From assembly GCA_964607125.1 (NCBI GenBank), contig CAZSHY010000003.1, positions 1 to 42,156 on the forward strand: DNA of 42,156 nt, written 5' to 3'. The stretch is from an uncultured Pseudomonadales bacterium (GTDB lineage Bacteria; Patescibacteriota; Microgenomatia; UBA1400; PJMF01). Position 1 is the stretch's first letter. Each line of letters begins with the position of its first letter. This document shows, piece after piece, positions 31,064 through 38,857 of this stretch. Both the position numbers and the translations under genes were made by a program. The notes under the pieces are model-generated. The model saw only the letters and a list, made by a program, of their open reading frames with translations. It was not told where the DNA came from and did not search any database.

Positions 31064-34000
31064 CTACCGCGTACGCGCCTTGCTCCACCAGAAAAAAATT
31101 AATCCACTTAATCCAACTGCGCCTATTGTCGCTCCGAGTAACCAATTGGTCTTAGGCAAAGCTGAATCAGAAGCTGTTTCGCCTCGTGTTTCAGCTTGAG
31201 TTGCGACAGCTGTCGTGGGCGTGACTGTTGGTAGCGGCGTTGGACTTGGGGTAGCGGTATCCTGAAAGTCTCTGACGCCTAGAACTGCCGCGTTTTTTGC
31301 TGGCTCAGTTGAGTTGGGTGAATAACCTCCCATTGGAAATTCTCCTGCTTTGGTCATTTTGATTGGTTGCACAAACAAGTATCCATTGGCAAAGTAATAA
31401 TCCACTGGCTGACTAATGTTGCTAGCATGGTCTGTGCCGGTAATTTGCAATCGGTAAATACCTCTGGCTAAGGAGTGTGGAAGCGCCTCGCCAAAGTTAT
31501 AGATTTTGGCAAGATCTTCTGCTGCAGCTTGTCTAACCTCTGGATTTGATTCTCCAACCAGTTGGTAGACTCCCTGATCGTTCTTGTAACTTAGCACAAG
31601 ACGTACTTCTCTGACCCCGGCAGCATCGGCAGCATACTCGTCTACTGCCCCATCTGGATAACGGGTGACGGAGCCTTTTTTGGGATCGCTAATTTTTCCC
31701 AGGACCGCCAATTGATTGATCAAGTTGAGAGGATAAAGCATGTTCGGTTGTACAGCTCCCACCTGAGGTAAAACGACCTCAGTAACCTTGGGGGCGGTGA
31801 AGTCCATAACCAGGGTCGCTTCTCGAGTTGTTGCGTGATCAACCACGTCTTTGGCAGTGACTTTCCAGTGGTGCACGCCTTCGCTGAGAGGATTGCTGAG
31901 CAAACCCTTGAAAAAAACCTCGATCAGGTTGTTACTAGAGTTAGAATCGTGTTCGTTGCGGTAGGTAACTTTAGCCAGGTGCGTATCCCTTTCCACGCAT
32001 TCAGACGTAACCCCGCAAGAAGTTGGAAGCTGGCCAATGGTGTAGTTTCTGTATTTATCGGCATCCAGTTCAAAGTAGTAAGACAAGGTGCTTGCTACGT
32101 CTGAAAAGAAGGGTGTGACCAGGGTGGGCATTGATTGATTGGAATAACCGCTTGGACTTATGGCTGCGGAAGTTGGCTGATTTGTATCAATGATTAAGCT
32201 CATGGTGGCAAAGTTTGACTGAGCGGTATAAGTGCTATGGCTGTCAATTGCCCTGAAATAGACGGTGTGTTGACCCTCTGTCAGACTGGACAAGAGAGAG
32301 CAACTGAAATTTTCTGAGGTACTATTAAAAGTCCCATCATCTGCAGTACAGCTAGTCCAGGTGCCGGTTAAGCTATTTGAGTCAATTTGATAAGCCACAC
32401 CCGCCACGGTTGAAGTGGAGTTTGGCGCTTGAATGCTGCCGGTGAGGGTTGGCTGGATGTTGGTGGTTGCGACTGCAGCTGTGGTGAAAGTGTGCGGAAA
32501 ATTGTAGATCAAGAAGTATGAGCCAGAGTCAGCACGGCTATTATATCCAGCGTTACGTGAATTTAAGATATAGTCCAACTGGCCGTCCTGATTAAAATCT
32601 GCGAAGTATCCATTTTGGAAGAACATTCTGTGACCAGTACCACCGTCATAACGGAGATTGAAGTTATTGGTATTGGCGGTGTCAATAGTCGTGCCTGGAG
32701 TTGACCAAGTATCACGTAGCCCATCAAGAAAGATGTAAACCGCGCCAGAGTCAGCCCCATTGGTGTTGGCAAGTTTAGAACCGACCACCAGATCTGGGCG
32801 GCCATTGTTATTCATATCCATGATGCCCATGGAGGTAAAGCTAAAGTTGTCAGAGGTTTCGGCACCGTCAATCCGGACTCGGTAATTTGTAGCTGTAGCC
32901 AAGTCCACCAAATTTCCTGTGCCAGTTAATTCGCCAAAAGTGGCATTTTCAATAATCCAAACGCTGCCCGAGTTGGCTCGAGAGTTGTAGTCAGATTGGT
33001 AACTGCCAACGACGATGTCATCTTTTCCGTCATGTGTAATGTCATCGATAATCAATAAGTTGCCATAGGACATGAGGTCGCCGGCTGTTGCACCATCAAT
33101 GCGCACCAACCAAGGTGAAGACACTGCCATATCAACTATATTTGCAGAGGTGCCCGCATATCCGGCTATAAAGGAATTGTCAAAAATCCAGATTGATCCT
33201 GAGTTTGCCCGAGTGTTGTAATCGGTCAGATCTGAGCCGACAAAAAGGTCAAGATGACCGTCACCATTGTAGTCGCCTATGGCTGTAGCGCCGCCGCCAA
33301 AGGTGTGGCCAGCTTCGGCCCCATCAATTCTAAGGCTAAAATTACTCGTAGTACCCACGTTGATCAGGTTGCCAGTGCCGGTATAGTCATCGAGAAGTGT
33401 GTTGAAAAAAACAAATACCGATCCAGATTCGGCGCGTCCGTTATTGTCCGCGTGGTGAGACTCAAGCAAGATGTCGTTTTTATTGTCCCTGTCTAGGTCT
33501 GCAATTATCAAAGATAAATTGCCAAACGAGTCGCCAGTGGCAGCTCCCTGGATTATTAGGTTGTAGTTGGAGCTGACTGACAAATCCATGACATTGCCCA
33601 CACTACTTAAATATCCGGCAAATAAATCATGATAAATCAAAAACACGTTGCCCCGAACGCTGTCGGCGTAGGATTCGCTAATCAGCATGTCCTCCTTGCC
33701 ATCGTTGTTCAGATCTCCAAAAATCACACCCGCGCTGGAAGTCAGAAATCCACTAACTAGGTCACCATCAATTCTCACCGAATAGTTGTTGGAGTTGGCT
33801 AGGTCAATAGTATTGCCAGTACCAGTATAGTTGTCCAAAATATCGCCGCTAATGATGTAAATTGACCCTGAGCTGTTCTTGCCTCCGTTGTCTGCCAGAG
33901 CTGCGCCAATTACGAGGTCTTGCTTGCCGTCACCATCAATATCGGTAAAGGCCTTTTGACCCAAGCTGGCGCCGTTGTATCCCAGCTGATCAGAAATTGC

Positions 34001-34135
34001 CGCCCCATCAAGTCTAATGTTGAATGAGCCCAGATTGGTTACGTCAACTGTAATTCCGGCCGCAGACACCACTTGTGGTTGTATGACCAGACTGGCAACA
34101 ACCCAACACAAAACCAGCCATAACAATCTAAGCAT
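31064..34135 (-). CDS. Large surface protein: signal peptide, 7-blade FG-GAP (integrin-alpha-like) beta-propeller, Ig-like region, C-terminal LPKTN plus TM plus basic tail
   Basis: Seven repeats, each with a Ca-binding-like Dx(D/N)xDGxxD loop (DIDGDGKQD, DLNNDGKED, DLDRDNKND, DYNGDGHLD, DITHDGKDD, DMNNNGRPD, DFNQDGQLD). Each is followed by an (R)A(N/D)SGS-aromatic strand. The C-terminus is ALPKTNWLLGATIGAVGLSGLIFFWWSKARTR. Confidence 0.88.
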   Translation of the reverse strand: MLRLLWLVLCWVVASLVIQPQVVSAAGITVDVTNLGSFNIRLDGAAISDQLGYNGASLGQKAFTDIDGDGKQDLVIGAALADNGGKNSSGSIYIISGDILDNYTGTGNTIDLANSNNYSVRIDGDLVSGFLTSSAGVIFGDLNNDGKEDMLISESYADSVRGNVFLIYHDLFAGYLSSVGNVMDLSVSSNYNLIIQGAATGDSFGNLSLIIADLDRDNKNDILLESHHADNNGRAESGSVFVFFNTLLDDYTGTGNLINVGTTSNFSLRIDGAEAGHTFGGGATAIGDYNGDGHLDLFVGSDLTDYNTRANSGSIWIFDNSFIAGYAGTSANIVDMAVSSPWLVRIDGATAGDLMSYGNLLIIDDITHDGKDDIVVGSYQSDYNSRANSGSVWIIENATFGELTGTGNLVDLATATNYRVRIDGAETSDNFSFTSMGIMDMNNNGRPDLVVGSKLANTNGADSGAVYIFLDGLRDTWSTPGTTIDTANTNNFNLRYDGGTGHRMFFQNGYFADFNQDGQLDYILNSRNAGYNSRADSGSYFLIYNFPHTFTTAAVATTNIQPTLTGSIQAPNSTSTVAGVAYQIDSNSLTGTWTSCTADDGTFNSTSENFSCSLLSSLTEGQHTVYFRAIDSHSTYTAQSNFATMSLIIDTNQPTSAAISPSGYSNQSMPTLVTPFFSDVASTLSYYFELDADKYRNYTIGQLPTSCGVTSECVERDTHLAKVTYRNEHDSNSSNNLIEVFFKGLLSNPLSEGVHHWKVTAKDVVDHATTREATLVMDFTAPKVTEVVLPQVGAVQPNMLYPLNLINQLAVLGKISDPKKGSVTRYPDGAVDEYAADAAGVREVRLVLSYKNDQGVYQLVGESNPEVRQAAAEDLAKIYNFGEALPHSLARGIYRLQITGTDHASNISQPVDYYFANGYLFVQPIKMTKAGEFPMGGYSPNSTEPAKNAAVLGVRDFQDTATPSPTPLPTVTPTTAVATQAETRGETASDSALPKTNWLLGATIGAVGLSGLIFFWWSKARTR

Positions 34136-34211: not shown

Positions 34212-34246
34212 TCTTAAAAGAAAAGCCCCGCATTCAGCGGGGCTTT
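34212..34246 (-). terminator. Rho-independent terminator downstream of Cys-rich protein A
   Basis: Stem AAAGCCCCGC / GCGGGGCTTT (10 bp, 5-nt loop), followed on the minus strand by TTTTCTTTT. Confidence 0.8.
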
Positions 34247-34270: not shown

Positions 34271-35656
34271 CTAAAGAGCGGCGTTGTTGTGAATAGTCTT
34301 GACACAATTGGGCATAGGAAGTGAAAACTGCCCACCCTCTACACTAAAGTATCCGTTCAGTTGGAGGTTGATCACCTGCTTGTTGCCGGGATTGGACGTC
34401 CAGTTCATATCTGCAGGGAATAGTTGGGAGTAAGTTCTGCTGATCGCGCCACTATTCTGTCTCAAGGTCTTGTTAGAGTTGAGAAAGATAAGCTGGTAAC
34501 TACCTGCGGGACATGGACCCTGAATACCTGGCACGTCTCCCCCAGTCGTAACACAAACTGGCTTGGGGTTGTTAGCGCTATAGACGTTGTCCGCATTGTA
34601 GGCAACATACCAGAAGTTGTTGACCAAGGTGTTGGAAACACTCGACATAGTAGTGGATTGACCAGGAGAGACATTCGAGCTGCCGACAGTGGTCCATACA
34701 CAGTAGTTGCCTCTGATAGCAGGATCTGCAGTCGGAGTCGGCACTGGGCCTGGGTTGCTGCCACCATTTCCACCGTTGCCACCTGAGCCGGAGCCACCAC
34801 TGCTGCCTCCTGAGCCAGTACTGCCAGAGCCGCTACCACTTGAAGTACTTGGTGTGTAGCAAGCGGTTTTGGTGCTGTTCATTTTTTTATTCGACGTGCA
34901 GCACTGAGCAGCAGCATATTCATACTTACTCTTTTTCAAAGCGCAAGCATGCGCATCAATTAGTTGCGAGGTTGTCTCTGCGCACTCGAGTCCGTCCTCA
35001 CAAACGGGAAGACATTTGTCACCAGCTTTAAACAAGTTCTTATCACATGCAACGCCGCAAATGACTGTTCCGTCAGGGTTTTGGCTCACGTTTGCTCCTA
35101 CTGAGCATACTTTTCCGAAACCTAAACTAGTTCCAGTTGGCTTGCCCTTGCATTCAGCAGCGGAGTTAGAGCCACATCCTGTGCCTGTAGCAGCCACAGC
35201 TTTGCAGGTAATATCTAGGCCAACTTTTTTTGTTTCAACGCAAACGCTTTGAGAATTATTGACCAAATCTCCAACTAAGTGACCGACACATGCTGGGTCG
35301 GTACCGGCTGCTAGGCCCGCGCAACTTTTCTTTGGCACATAAGGAATTGCCTTGCATTTAACATGGTCCTCGTTCAGTGGTGCTGCATAGGCGCATATTT
35401 TTGTACCATTTTCGACAATTTCTTGCTGAGCTTTGCCATCACACACCGCGTCAATATTGTTACCTGGTGAGGCTGCGCAGCGTAAACCTGCTGCTTCAGA
35501 TCTGCCATCAGTATTCACTCTTTGAGTAGCATAAACCGCAATACCCATCAGGATTAGCACCACAAAACTAAGCACGCCCATTATCATGGTTCTTAAAGAC
35601 GAGTTGTTGTTTTTTTTAGAAGACTGGTACTTTCGAGAACTGATTTTTTTCTTCAT
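34271..35656 (-). CDS. Cys-rich secreted/anchored protein A (hypothetical)
   Basis: Basic N-terminus (MKKKISSRKYQSSKK), a TM helix, and the conserved MGIAVYATQRVNTDGRSEA. There are 24 Cys by my count, a GS/GN linker, and a C-terminal beta-rich domain. An upstream ATG at 35692 is possible, but it overlaps a -10-like box and the paralog also starts MKKK. Confidence 0.8.
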   Translation of the reverse strand: MKKKISSRKYQSSKKNNNSSLRTMIMGVLSFVVLILMGIAVYATQRVNTDGRSEAAGLRCAASPGNNIDAVCDGKAQQEIVENGTKICAYAAPLNEDHVKCKAIPYVPKKSCAGLAAGTDPACVGHLVGDLVNNSQSVCVETKKVGLDITCKAVAATGTGCGSNSAAECKGKPTGTSLGFGKVCSVGANVSQNPDGTVICGVACDKNLFKAGDKCLPVCEDGLECAETTSQLIDAHACALKKSKYEYAAAQCCTSNKKMNSTKTACYTPSTSSGSGSGSTGSGGSSGGSGSGGNGGNGGSNPGPVPTPTADPAIRGNYCVWTTVGSSNVSPGQSTTMSSVSNTLVNNFWYVAYNADNVYSANNPKPVCVTTGGDVPGIQGPCPAGSYQLIFLNSNKTLRQNSGAISRTYSQLFPADMNWTSNPGNKQVINLQLNGYFSVEGGQFSLPMPNCVKTIHNNAAL

Positions 35657-35732
35657 AGCTTTTGGATTGATTAATCGTTTATTACTACTCATTAAATACT
35701 TTTTCGGTTACAGAGTCAATTATCTATACAAC

Positions 35733-35767
35733 AGGCGCCCGGCGTGGTAAACCACTGCCGAGCGCCT
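35733..35767 (-). terminator. Possible terminator hairpin downstream of Cys-rich protein B
   Basis: AGGCGC-C-CGGC ... GCCG-A-GCGCCT imperfect stem. The U-tract on the minus strand is weak (TGTTGTAT). Confidence 0.4.
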
Positions 35768-35787
35768 ACTTGTTACTATTTATACTT

Positions 35788-36801
35788 TTAGTTAGGACAG
35801 GCTAGATTGGCCAGACCTATGATTTTGCTTGTGGCTGGTTGGGTAGCCGTAGCTGCATTGACAGCATAGAGGTAGTAAGGGTGGGAAGCTCCATCCTTTA
35901 AGTTCTGGTTAGAGAACTTTGAATTTTGGAATAAGTCAGCCATCTTGACGTTGAATCTGTGCTTGCACTGAATCAAGTCGGGATTGGTTTCACACGCACC
36001 ACAGAGTGAGGGTGAGCCACCAATCGCTTGACAGACTAGCTTCATGTCGACGCGATTAGCGTTAACGGAGGACGTCGGCCAATTGGCAGGAATGATGAAA
36101 GGTCCAGCGCCTACTCCGGCGGGGCCATTGGCATAGACATGGATGGATACAACTTGGTTAAGATCCTTAGTCATGCCAGCCCAGCCCATGATGTTGGAAC
36201 AGGTAGCCACTGAGGTATCTGCAATACCAATCAAAGTTCCCTGGTCTGCAGGAGGTGTGGCTGTGCCACCGGCGTTGCCATCCTCATTAACGCATTTTAG
36301 TCCACCACCACTGACGGTAATTACTTTTTGGTTGTTCTGACAACAGTTTGCTTGCATTGCTGAGGATCCACTACTGACATGGGCGCATATGTGGCTATTG
36401 AGTGGAGCAGAACCTGCTCTACAGTCAAGCCCGTATGCGCACGCAACTAAGCAGGTGCCATTTACGTAGAAACCATCTTTTGCGCCAAGCTTGCAGGGAC
36501 GAGGCTTCAGCTTGCAAACAGAACTATTGCCGATAGCACTACAAATCGAATTAGGATTTCCTGTGGGGGAATTACCGCTATAAACGTCTGTACATGCTGG
36601 ATCTGAACCATTTATATTTCGGCATTTTGCACCACTTGCCTGCGATCGCTGATCCATATTCACCTTTTGAGTAGCATACACCGCGATACCCATCACAATC
36701 AGCAAAATAAAACCAACTAAACCTAGGAGTAAGGCATTGAACGAAAAGCCGCCTTTGCTTCTAGAGGAAATACGTGGACGAACAGGAGTTTTTTTCTTCA
36801 T
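35788..36801 (-). CDS. Cys-rich secreted/anchored protein B (paralog of A in the N-terminal half)
   Basis: MKKKTPVRPRISSRSK, a TM helix, MGIAVYATQKVNMDQRSQA, and 18 Cys by my count. The ORF-track start at 36909 would run through a terminator U-tract and a promoter-like region, so the ATG at 36801 is preferred. Confidence 0.8.
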   Translation of the reverse strand: MKKKTPVRPRISSRSKGGFSFNALLLGLVGFILLIVMGIAVYATQKVNMDQRSQASGAKCRNINGSDPACTDVYSGNSPTGNPNSICSAIGNSSVCKLKPRPCKLGAKDGFYVNGTCLVACAYGLDCRAGSAPLNSHICAHVSSGSSAMQANCCQNNQKVITVSGGGLKCVNEDGNAGGTATPPADQGTLIGIADTSVATCSNIMGWAGMTKDLNQVVSIHVYANGPAGVGAGPFIIPANWPTSSVNANRVDMKLVCQAIGGSPSLCGACETNPDLIQCKHRFNVKMADLFQNSKFSNQNLKDGASHPYYLYAVNAATATQPATSKIIGLANLACPN

Positions 36802-37087: not shown

Positions 37088-37783
37088 TTATGGATTTCCA
37101 CCAGGGTTTTGGCCAACAAACTCTAGGACATTGGCATCCTTTTTGAGACTTTGGCCAAGACCACGGTCGTCGTAGCGCATCTCGGCCATCCACTGATTTA
37201 CACTGGCTGCCCAACTACCATTGCTGCTGGGTGTGTACTTGCGCATGATTAGTTCGGGAGTGGTCAGGCCGCGGTCGATGTAGTTCTTTTTGAGTTCCCT
37301 ACCCGCGCGATCAAAACCGGCTTCGTAAGAGTCAAAACCCAGTGTGCCTCGAGCGTGGATGCCAAAACCTAAGCAATTGTATGTTTCGGGCGGGATAACC
37401 TTGCACAAATTGCTTTCTTGCATGGCTATGGCTGGCAGGAGCCGAAAGTCGATTTGGTAGCGGTCGGCTATTTCTACCAGCTTCACCCCGTAGTAATCAT
37501 GTGGCTTCATGGGCGAGTCGTATCGTTTGAGGAAGTTGGCGACTATTTTGGCCCGCGCGTCAGCGGTTTCCACCAGGGCTTGAAGGTGCTGTGAATCGTC
37601 AAATTCGTCATAGCGGTAACCGTGGGCACTGGAAATGATGGCATTTTGCTCAAAGCTACTTGGTGAGATACCTTGATTAAGAGCTACTGCCCTGAGTCGG
37701 TAGTATTGGACCGCAGCAACGCCAGTCAGGACCATTCCCGCGGCCAAGAGCATCCAAGCGTACGCAAAAAAAAGCGCTTTCAT
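37088..37783 (-). CDS. Membrane-anchored lytic transglycosylase (SLT domain)
   Basis: N-terminal TM helix. LLPAIAMQESNLCK contains the SLT catalytic Glu motif. Confidence 0.8.
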   Translation of the reverse strand: MKALFFAYAWMLLAAGMVLTGVAAVQYYRLRAVALNQGISPSSFEQNAIISSAHGYRYDEFDDSQHLQALVETADARAKIVANFLKRYDSPMKPHDYYGVKLVEIADRYQIDFRLLPAIAMQESNLCKVIPPETYNCLGFGIHARGTLGFDSYEAGFDRAGRELKKNYIDRGLTTPELIMRKYTPSSNGSWAASVNQWMAEMRYDDRGLGQSLKKDANVLEFVGQNPGGNP

Positions 37784-37864: not shown

Positions 37865-38857
37865 ATGCTGCGCACTCACATGATCCACTTCTGGTTTTTT
37901 TTGACCTTACTTTATTTGTCAGGGGCGTCGGTGTGGCAGGCAGCAGCTCAAAGTTCAGATAAACTGGGCATTCACATCCTTCATCCAGACGAACTAACTG
38001 CGGCCAATGCCCTTTTGGACGCCAACACTACAACTGAGTCGTGGCACTACGTGACTATCCCTTTTACCTACTCAGATCTGGAGAAACCGGCTGAATGGAA
38101 AATCTTCTTTTCCAAAGCTCGTCAACTCCACATAATTCCCATCATTAGACTGGCCACTAAGCATGAGGGTGACGCTTGGGTGCAACCAGACAAGAAGCAT
38201 ATTGTGGAACAGTTGGATTTTTTAAGCGCACAGACTTGGCCAACCCAGGAAAAGCGAATTATCGTCTACAACGAAGTTAATCATGCCAAAGAATGGGGCG
38301 GGCAGATTGACCCTCAGAGTTATGCTGACACTCTAGAATTTGTGAGCAGTTGGGCGCATACCCAGCCGGGCGACCCGTTTAAGGTCTTGCCGGCAGCTAT
38401 GGACTTAGCAGCTGGGAATACTCGAGATACCAAAGAAGCTTTTGCATACCTGAACGCCATGGTGGTACACAATCCGCAGATATTTGACTTTGTCGATGCA
38501 TGGAATTCCCACTCATACCCAAACCCCGGATTTGCGGCGTCTCCTCAAAGAACTGGCCAAAACTCAATTAGCGGATTTCGTCATGAGTTGGCATTTTTGG
38601 AAAAATTAAGCGACCGTGTTTGGCAGGTCTACATCACGGAAACGGGTTGGAGTGTAACTAAGTCACTGGCCAAATGGTTGCCGTCGTATTACCAGTATGC
38701 CATTGACCATGTCTGGAGTGACCCAGAGGTGGTGGCAGTCACGCCGTTTGTCTTGCGCGGAGCTCCTGGACCATTTGAAGCATTCAGTTTTTTGGACGCC
38801 GATGGCCAGCCAACCGCGCAGTATCGGGCGATGTTTGATCAGTTGTCTCCTATTTGA
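37865..38857 (+). CDS. Secreted clan GH-A glycoside hydrolase-like protein
   Basis: Signal peptide. VYNEVNHAKEW is acid/base NE-type and YITETGWS is nucleophile TE-type, spaced as in (beta/alpha)8 clan-A hydrolases. Confidence 0.7.
   Translation: MLRTHMIHFWFFLTLLYLSGASVWQAAAQSSDKLGIHILHPDELTAANALLDANTTTESWHYVTIPFTYSDLEKPAEWKIFFSKARQLHIIPIIRLATKHEGDAWVQPDKKHIVEQLDFLSAQTWPTQEKRIIVYNEVNHAKEWGGQIDPQSYADTLEFVSSWAHTQPGDPFKVLPAAMDLAAGNTRDTKEAFAYLNAMVVHNPQIFDFVDAWNSHSYPNPGFAASPQRTGQNSISGFRHELAFLEKLSDRVWQVYITETGWSVTKSLAKWLPSYYQYAIDHVWSDPEVVAVTPFVLRGAPGPFEAFSFLDADGQPTAQYRAMFDQLSPI

Follow-up and report, generated by a model that had tools for sequence, protein, structure and literature searches.

The window analysed here is the whole 42,156-nucleotide stretch of contig CAZSHY010000003.1, in which two consecutive genes on the minus strand encode exported cysteine-rich proteins, referred to as A and B. 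Translation of gene A (34271..35656, stop included) gives 461 amino acids from the MKKK start, with 24 cysteines; gene B (35788..36801, stop included) gives 337 amino acids with 18 cysteines. The gene-caller product of A (P0003) begins at Met24. Both proteins start with MKKK and a basic stretch and continue into a hydrophobic segment of about 20 residues that ends in MGIAVYATQ(R/K)VN.D.RS.A; the N-terminal sequences are MKKKISSRKYQSSKK for A and MKKKTPVRPRISSRSK for B, with a positively charged n-region in both. Comparison within the genome and the class indicates that the core of this motif belongs to a leader cassette found across Microgenomatia, and that A and B are members of a small mosaic family with a third paralog elsewhere in the genome. 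The source genome (1.12 Mb in 96 contigs, 98.9% complete) is that of an ultra-small, 'Pacebacteria'-like bacterium of the Patescibacteria/Microgenomatia. Many genome records carrying an enolase 65-72% identical are titled 'uncultured Pseudomonadales', 'Gammaproteobacteria' or 'Bathyarchaeia' and are evidently mislabelled records of metagenome-assembled genomes.

Pairwise comparison by BLASTP supported the view, put forward in an earlier sequence-only reading of this DNA, that A and B are tandem paralogs. The leaders (residues 1-60) aligned without gaps at 48% identity (E=3e-16), and a cysteine-rich module (A206-266 against B108-160) aligned at 29% identity (E=2e-5); the C-terminal domains showed no alignable similarity. 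At the DNA level, 27 of 29 positions are identical between 35522-35550 and 36667-36695, the same figure on recount as in that reading. The two genes use the same codon for 17 of the 27 degenerate conserved residues of the leader, compared with 9.3 expected from the codon usage of the genome (p=0.0015), and a 10-codon block within it also shows an excess of codon identity (p=0.02). The DNA-level conservation of the leader is therefore real, though modest. Recent gene conversion was considered as the source of the 27/29 identity and set aside as weakly supported by these two p-values. The segment MGIAVYATQ, which is private to the A/B pair, and the codons shared around it are attributed to tandem duplication or leader homogenisation.

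The two proteins are built from modules in the same order, all encoded on the minus strand. The leader occupies 35492..35656 in A and 36637..36801 in B. In A it comprises the basic n-region, the hydrophobic segment, a TQRVN spacer and the cassette DGRSEA (35492-35509), and in B the cassette reads DQRSQA (36637-36654). A leader profile (A3) gave 55 bits for A and 57.8 bits for B; both are among its 32 training rows, and these scores are therefore by construction. Repeats of about 40 residues with four cysteines each lie upstream of the module shared by the two proteins. There are three such 4-Cys repeats in A (residues 60-200; 35057..35479), with the pattern C-x7-11-C-xGK..GD(I/L)VxNGxS-C-x8-15-C, and a single one in B (residues 60-96; 36514..36624). 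When eight repeat units from A, B, the third paralog and P0004 were aligned (alignment A9), all four cysteine columns were invariant. P0004 is an ortholog of A, with a full-length identity of 38% by BLASTP and 42% in a MAFFT alignment.

The shared module contains eight cysteines, including one CC pair, and covers residues 204-266 of A (34859..35047; 83.5 bits with module profile A8) and residues 103-170 of B (36292..36495; 119.5 bits). Its cysteines, at positions 204, 215, 219, 225, 238, 252, 253 and 266 in A and 103, 117, 121, 127, 139, 153, 154 and 170 in B, are spaced nearly identically as C-x10-13-C-x3-C-x5-C-x11-12-C-x13-CC-x12-15-C, and both copies contain CxxxC, GL(E/D)C, H(A/I)CA and CCxxN(K/Q)K. 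In A, a low-complexity stretch of Gly, Ser, Asn and Pro (34721..34855) links this module to a C-terminal immunoglobulin (Ig)-like beta-sandwich domain of about 150 amino acids with four cysteines (34274..34720; NNFWY..NPKPVCV..CPxGxxQLIF..NGYFS..SLP..CV). The C-terminal domain of B (35791..36255) has 155 amino acids and six cysteines and reads IGIAD..GWAGM..HVYANG..CKHRF... The sequence-only reading had listed the MKKK start, the basic stretch and a transmembrane (TM) helix with a near-identical end, the CC-containing cysteine pattern, totals of 24 and 18 cysteines, unrelated C-terminal domains and a Gly/Ser/Asn linker in A from about 34720, and every one of these was recovered.

Structure prediction, suggested in the same reading as a check, was informative for A and failed for B. 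The AlphaFold2 (AF2) model of A has a helix at residues 19-47, a disordered leader cassette, a beta-rich 8-Cys module with a predicted local distance difference test score (pLDDT) of about 80-87, a linker with pLDDT below 50 and an end domain with pLDDT of about 92. In a Foldseek comparison with the PDB, the end domain of A resembled generic Ig-like sandwiches, the reeler domain being best (TM-score 0.47-0.50), and no function could be derived from these matches.

Consistent with the earlier statement that no described family bears this signature, none was found in Pfam, NCBIfam or the literature searches. Pfam returned no family for A or B even at E<=1, the single NCBIfam match was below cut-off (SCO0607 lipoprotein, 13 bits), and a PDB sequence search gave only artificial Gly/Ser-linker matches. 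A word-indexed homolog search yielded 2-3 close relatives each for A and B; among them, P0006 is 95% identical to B and comes from a metagenome contig on which the gene next upstream is also the same. A region-restricted homolog search returned the query itself as the sole match, and B had no match on contigs of other genomes when the source genome was left out. When 1.84 billion representatives were searched exhaustively with HMMER, matches to the Cys-rich region were confined to P0004 and B-like proteins, and with the 8-Cys module profile the source genome was the sole positive among 301 sampled Microgenomatia genomes. Eight-cysteine modules with one CC pair, presumably joined in four disulfides, are also known from small secreted proteins, namely the plant non-specific lipid transfer proteins ('8CM'), fungal hydrophobins and CFEM proteins; the A/B module differs from these in its cysteine spacing, in being bacterial and predicted to be beta-rich, and in having no Pfam match at E<=1.

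The end domains are distributed differently from the Cys-rich region. A profile built from A and P0004 matched 111 representative clusters in the exhaustive search, nearly all on the end domain of A alone, in architectures of 160-1170 amino acids and with E down to 1e-70. Unlike that of B, the A end domain clearly belongs to an unnamed beta-sandwich family, here called the 'NPKPVCV' family, of about 150 amino acids with four conserved cysteines and the conserved motifs NNFxY, NPKPVCV, CPxGxH and QINAYF. Most members of this family are sortase-anchored or multi-domain proteins with a leader of another type, the 'proline box', whereas A combines a [DE]xRxxA leader with Cys-rich modules. Distant relatives of the end domain of B occur in a protein of the source genome (C5:7640-10966) and, as weak matches, in three further Microgenomatia genomes.

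The copy-number search proposed in the sequence-only reading gave three family members in the source genome. The third paralog, on contig C1 (C1:13107-14168, minus strand), has 353 amino acids, 18 cysteines, one 4-Cys repeat, an 8-Cys module and a B-type end domain, and was recovered by the leader, module and end-domain searches alike. Its hydrophobic segment differs from that of A and B, and the cassette is retained as DNRSQA. The end domains of B and the C1 paralog (C1:13110-13574) share about 89-90% amino acid and 82-89% nucleotide identity, compared with only 27-41% identity in the Cys-rich half. Codon identity of conserved residues is likewise 0.52-0.75 in the end domain and 0.27-0.50 in the Cys-rich half, the latter close to the level given by codon usage alone, and the N-terminal halves of the two proteins are saturated with substitutions. 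The two halves of these genes therefore have different histories. This pattern indicates end-domain recombination or gene conversion between the unlinked loci of B and the C1 paralog; the Cys-rich cores would have diverged first, and the exchange or homogenisation of the end domains, and of the leader in the case of A and B, would be more recent. The paralogy of the three proteins is well established by these alignments, and we describe A, B and the C1 paralog as a very narrow mosaic family of exported, putatively disulfide-rich proteins.

An all-ORF (open reading frame) scan of the source genome then placed the motif in a wider setting. The pattern [DE]xR[SQ]xA occurs directly after an N-terminal hydrophobic segment in eight proteins. 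Three of these are A, B and the C1 paralog; the other five, unrelated to them, are 238-883 amino acids long and are encoded on contigs C10, C16, C32, C33 and C73. From position +1 of the cassette, the C10 protein continues as ANDEAPVSTTFAPTPGTQLVYNQALK and the C33 protein as ASKNPPTLNK. Among 1147 ORFs taken as genes the pattern occurs 22 times, 8 of them within the 30 residues that follow the first hydrophobic segment, compared with 0.38 expected from the proteome-wide rate over the 307 proteins with an N-terminal hydrophobic segment (Poisson p=7e-9). The leader profile also matched 17 of 31 close relatives, in which unrelated proteins carry the sharper consensus ...VVGxGxAxYL(S/T)QxxQ-D-[IV]-R-Q-Q-A-[AS]. 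Across the class, the 32-sequence profile A3 matched at least 121 of 301 genomes and at least 100 of 235 genera, figures that are an undercount with 23 candidates scored per genome. Support independent of the training rows came from A3 matches fetched from other families, 39 of 40 of which contain a Q-[DE]-[IV]-R-x-x-A cassette. Among about 280 sampled genomes from other Patescibacteria classes, six matched, none with a match covering the cassette positions. The motif core, present on unrelated proteins in the genome and in the class, is therefore not private to the A/B family, and these comparisons show it to be the source genome's spelling of a Microgenomatia-wide leader cassette. Literature searches by topic and by motif string (DIRQQA, DVRQQA, DIRSRA and similar) found no description of the cassette, and the paper on Pam pili of the Candidate Phyla Radiation (CPR) does not mention the motif (PMC13278184). 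These sequence comparisons lead us to regard the cassette as a genuine variant of an export signal, class-wide in distribution and not previously described.

Genes bearing this leader are often clustered in tandem in other Microgenomatia, for example at G115:C1:343924-360202, G221:C27:10499-13781 and G041:C1:283130-284060. The source genome contains two more tandem Cys-rich proteins at C30:4331-6054 (minus strand), of 281 and 282 amino acids with 20 and 21 cysteines, which have degenerate leader variants (...TQRQLSKPTSTQSQAAS and ...TKTQLQSDASC) and weak leader-profile scores. The second leader type of the class, the proline box (...A(I/V)FTA(I/F)RLYxLRQQAVAPNAPxSxPxA), is present on many proteins that combine the end domain of A with LPxxG anchors, examples being P0013, P0016, P0023, L132 and L134. 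With a common R-Q-Q-A core, the proline-box leader and the [DE]xRxxA cassette may be related types.

Cassette positions were numbered back from the invariant Ala in 72 sequences aligned on R..A. Position -1 is Ala and position -4 is Arg in all 72, which follows from the way the alignment was built. Position -6 is Asp or Glu in 69 of 72 and position -7 is Gln in 61 of 72; position -5 is mostly Ile or Val, and position -2 is mostly Arg or Lys across the class. Conservation ends abruptly at the Ala, after which the +1 residue is Ala, Ser or Thr in 60 of the 72. At position -3, Lys, Ser, Gln and Glu occur in 10, 9, 9 and 8 of 39 class-wide leaders; in the source genome and its taxonomic family the residue is Ser or Gln, and it is Ser in A and B.

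The cargo behind the cassette is evidently extracytoplasmic. In the eight leader-bearing proteins the numbers of cysteines after the hydrophobic segment are 18, 24, 18, 18, 4, 20, 6 and 4, all even, and the mean Cys content of these proteins is 3.6%, compared with a median of 0.44% in the remaining proteins that have a hydrophobic segment at the N-terminus (Mann-Whitney p=7e-5). The source genome encodes a VKOR-fusion oxidoreductase and two sortases; the search for a co-occurring oxidoreductase or dedicated peptidase that the sequence-only reading had proposed turned up the former and not the latter. Other signal types fit poorly. The lipobox reading, which calls for [LVI][ASTVI][GAS]C directly after the h-region, was rejected, as the residues before the first cysteine are GLR in A and GAK in B, and this cysteine comes 15 residues past the hydrophobic segment. 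YSIRK, KxYKxGKxW, Tat and prepilin-type leaders gave no Pfam or NCBIfam match, and A and B contain no RR, YSIRK or G/FTLIE motif.

The explanation we consider likely is that A, B and the C1 paralog are a mosaic family of exported disulfide-rich proteins equipped with the class-wide leader. Each member would join the leader to one or three 4-Cys repeats, an 8-Cys 'CC' module, a low-complexity linker and an interchangeable beta-sandwich end domain. In the leader, an n-region rich in Lys and Arg precedes a hydrophobic segment of about 20-22 residues, after which come a Gln-rich spacer and [DE]-x-R-x-x-A with Ala, Ser or Thr behind it. Judging from the n- and h-region architecture and from the cargo, the leader would target the protein to Sec; the even cysteine counts and the presence of the VKOR fusion suggest that this system forms the disulfides of the ectodomain. 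The leader might then be cut at or near the invariant Ala, and A and B would be released as soluble or non-covalently wall-associated binding proteins. A role in binding or adhesion is inferred from the modelled beta-sandwich end domains; the end domain of A is also found on sortase-anchored proteins elsewhere, and the A/B neighbourhood is of the cell-envelope type.

We judge leader removal, at or close to the Ala, to be an evenly balanced question. Removal is suggested by the sortase-type C-termini of other leader-bearing proteins, by the stop of conservation at the Ala, by the disorder of the cassette in the AF2 model and by the presence of LepB in the relatives. An LPxxG motif followed by a TM segment, a sortase-type signal, ends 5 of the 17 complete leader-bearing ORFs in relatives, and a sixth, incomplete ORF has LPQTG; sortase substrates normally lose their N-terminal signal. 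Canonical LepB (TIGR02227) scored over the cut-off in 30 of 30 relatives, with more than 140 bits each. The leader is like a Sec/signal peptidase I signal peptide in its N-terminal position, basic n-region and hydrophobic core, in the invariant Ala followed by Ala, Ser or Thr, in its evidently extracytoplasmic cargo and in the occurrence of LepB in all 30 relatives searched. It differs in the conserved spacer of 8-12 residues before the Ala, in the TM length of the core, in the near-invariant Gln (-7), Asp/Glu (-6) and Arg (-4), in the residues common at -3 and in its restriction to one class.

Several observations weigh against removal, or against parts of the explanation as a whole. Position -3 is Lys, Glu or Gln in 27 of the 39 class-wide leaders and Gln in 22 of 33 leaders from the genome itself, its taxonomic family and its order. 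Lys, Glu or Gln at this position violates the -3/-1 rule that the classical signal peptides of the same genome obey; these also have short c-regions, as in the FG-GAP neighbour of gene A (...VIQPQVVSA/AG), and the genome thus has two leader populations. The hydrophobic segment of about 20-22 residues exceeds the 7-15 residues typical of an h-region, and together with the many long n-regions makes the leader look more like a signal anchor. The proline-box leader is conserved for 12 residues beyond its R-Q-Q-A core, which may accordingly be a recognition element rather than a scissile site. The AF2 model of B, obtained from a 3-row alignment, is unusable (pLDDT 36). Finally, LepB (PF10502/TIGR02227) was not found in the source assembly. 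We take this last absence to be probably an assembly gap, because 30 of 30 relatives have LepB and the assembly is in 96 contigs.

A lineage that lacks LepB and relies on an archaeal/SipW-type peptidase alone was also considered and ruled out by the LepB genes of the relatives and by the setting of the SipW-type gene. The product of that gene (C9:23812-25374), the only type I signal peptidase found in the source genome, is of the archaeal/SipW type (TIGR02228, 64 bits) and has a C-terminal extension of about 400 amino acids; the gene adjoins genes for a BsaA/TasA-like protein (TIGR04090, weak match) and an SppA-like protein within C9:23812-27143. The cluster resembles a SipW-TasA-type fibre module, here in a CPR genome, and the peptidase is probably dedicated to the neighbouring BsaA/TasA-like protein.

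If the leader is cut, A and B would be released or held non-covalently, because neither has a C-terminal anchor: A ends in ...CVKTIHNNAAL and B in ...GLANLACPN, with no LPXTG-like motif in either. The 'surface' location given in the sequence-only reading was in this respect not borne out. If the leader is uncut, both proteins would be anchored by the N-terminus, and this is the alternative that survives best, though we give it distinctly less credence than the explanation above. A and B would then be uncleaved type II (N-in) signal-anchor proteins, tethered to the membrane, and the Gln-rich/[DE]xRxxA segment would serve not as a processing site but as a stalk next to the membrane or for docking to the wall, an S-layer or a partner protein. 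The long basic N-terminus, the TM-length segment and the large C-terminal ectodomain are those of a type II signal anchor, and retention would explain a surface location for two proteins without another anchor; the non-canonical residues frequent at -3 and the conservation of the proline-box leader past its R-x-x-A core point the same way. Type II anchors differ, however, in lacking the cassette with its invariant Ala and the frequent C-terminal sortase-type signals, both of which suggest removal: the five proteins with LPxxG and a TM segment would be tied to membrane and wall at once. The break in conservation after the Ala and the predicted disorder of the cassette, which does not continue the helix, also argue against a permanent anchor.

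A second alternative, which overlaps with leader removal and which we consider rather unlikely, is that the cassette is the recognition site not of signal peptidase I but of a dedicated, hypothetical processing or sorting enzyme or receptor specific to Microgenomatia. The cassette would then be a sorting signal of a new class, on a par with LPXTG/sortase or PEP-CTERM/exosortase at the time of their discovery, and would channel a regulon of Cys-rich and sortase-type surface proteins, A and B included, into a specific route of processing or attachment in the unusual CPR cell envelope. The strict class restriction would fit such a system, as would a cargo enriched in Cys-rich and sortase-type surface proteins, often in tandem clusters, and a register in which Arg (-4), Ala (-1) and Gln-[DE] (-7/-6) are near-invariant while -3, the position read by signal peptidase I, varies freely. 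Against this, no candidate enzyme was found, and in the inspected loci no gene regularly neighboured the leader genes. Relatives with and without a detected cassette all have LepB, and the SipW-type peptidase of the source genome adjoins a TasA/BsaA-like substrate of its own.

The sequence-only reading had interpreted the motif as a processing, sorting or docking signal rather than a structural need, and had named a generic TM-end feature in unrelated proteins as what would speak against it. The signal-like character of the motif stood up; its role as a signature of the Cys-rich family did not, with five unrelated carriers in the genome and hundreds across Microgenomatia. A signal or structural element private to A/B-type Cys-rich proteins is now very improbable: the longest identical stretch, MGIAVYATQ(R/K)VN, is indeed common to A and B only, but the C1 paralog has the same Cys modules with another hydrophobic segment and keeps DNRSQA alone, and the cassette recurs on unrelated proteins in many other genera. 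Least credible of all is a chance product of composition, a generic polar stretch of the kind that follows most TM ends, given 8 carriers among 307 proteins with an N-terminal hydrophobic segment where 0.38 were expected, the fixed register to that segment and the near-invariance of Arg and Ala across genera; unrelated proteins do share the feature, and it is not generic.

The cassette leader acts like a Sec signal peptide or signal anchor with an additional lineage-specific motif, and its closest analogy among known systems is the YSIRK-G/S type leader of Gram-positive surface proteins. Like YSIRK-G/S and KxYKxGKxW leaders, it is a lineage-restricted motif in the leaders of unrelated surface proteins, several of them sortase substrates, and sorting information is presumably added to Sec targeting. 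In those leaders the motif sits within the n-region or where the h-region begins, whereas the cassette lies after the h-region, has no sequence similarity or HMM (hidden Markov model) match to any described leader and occurs in a different taxon, Microgenomatia.

CPR/Patescibacteria are thought to live attached to hosts, and their surface and secreted proteins are likely to form the host interface; to our knowledge, almost none of these proteins has been annotated. A near-invariant cassette found throughout a class offers a simple sequence handle for enumerating an exported proteome whose members standard predictors would probably label as membrane anchors. The non-canonical -3 residue raises the question of the specificity of signal peptidase, or of a new processing enzyme, in these organisms. 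The family of A, B and the C1 paralog would illustrate how surface proteins diversify by recombining a fixed leader, Cys-rich spacer modules and interchangeable putative binding domains.

The neighbouring genes in the window were examined as well. Further upstream of B, a gene at 37865-38857 (plus strand) encodes a 330-amino-acid secreted protein that is TIM-barrel-glycosidase-like (NEVNH motif), with no Pfam or NCBIfam match. The gene at 37088-37783 (minus strand) encodes a 231-amino-acid membrane-anchored protein with an SLT-like AIAMQES motif, again with no Pfam or NCBIfam match; on metagenome contig L031 it likewise lies next upstream of the B homolog. On the 3' side of gene A lies an intrinsic-terminator-like hairpin (34222..34246, minus strand) with a 10-bp stem, 7 GC pairs and a T run. 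Directly downstream of A is the gene for the 1023-amino-acid FG-GAP repeat protein (31064-34135, minus strand), whose classical signal peptide contrasts in type with the leaders of A and B and whose C-terminus, LPKTN followed by a TM segment and a basic tail, is that of a canonical sortase substrate.

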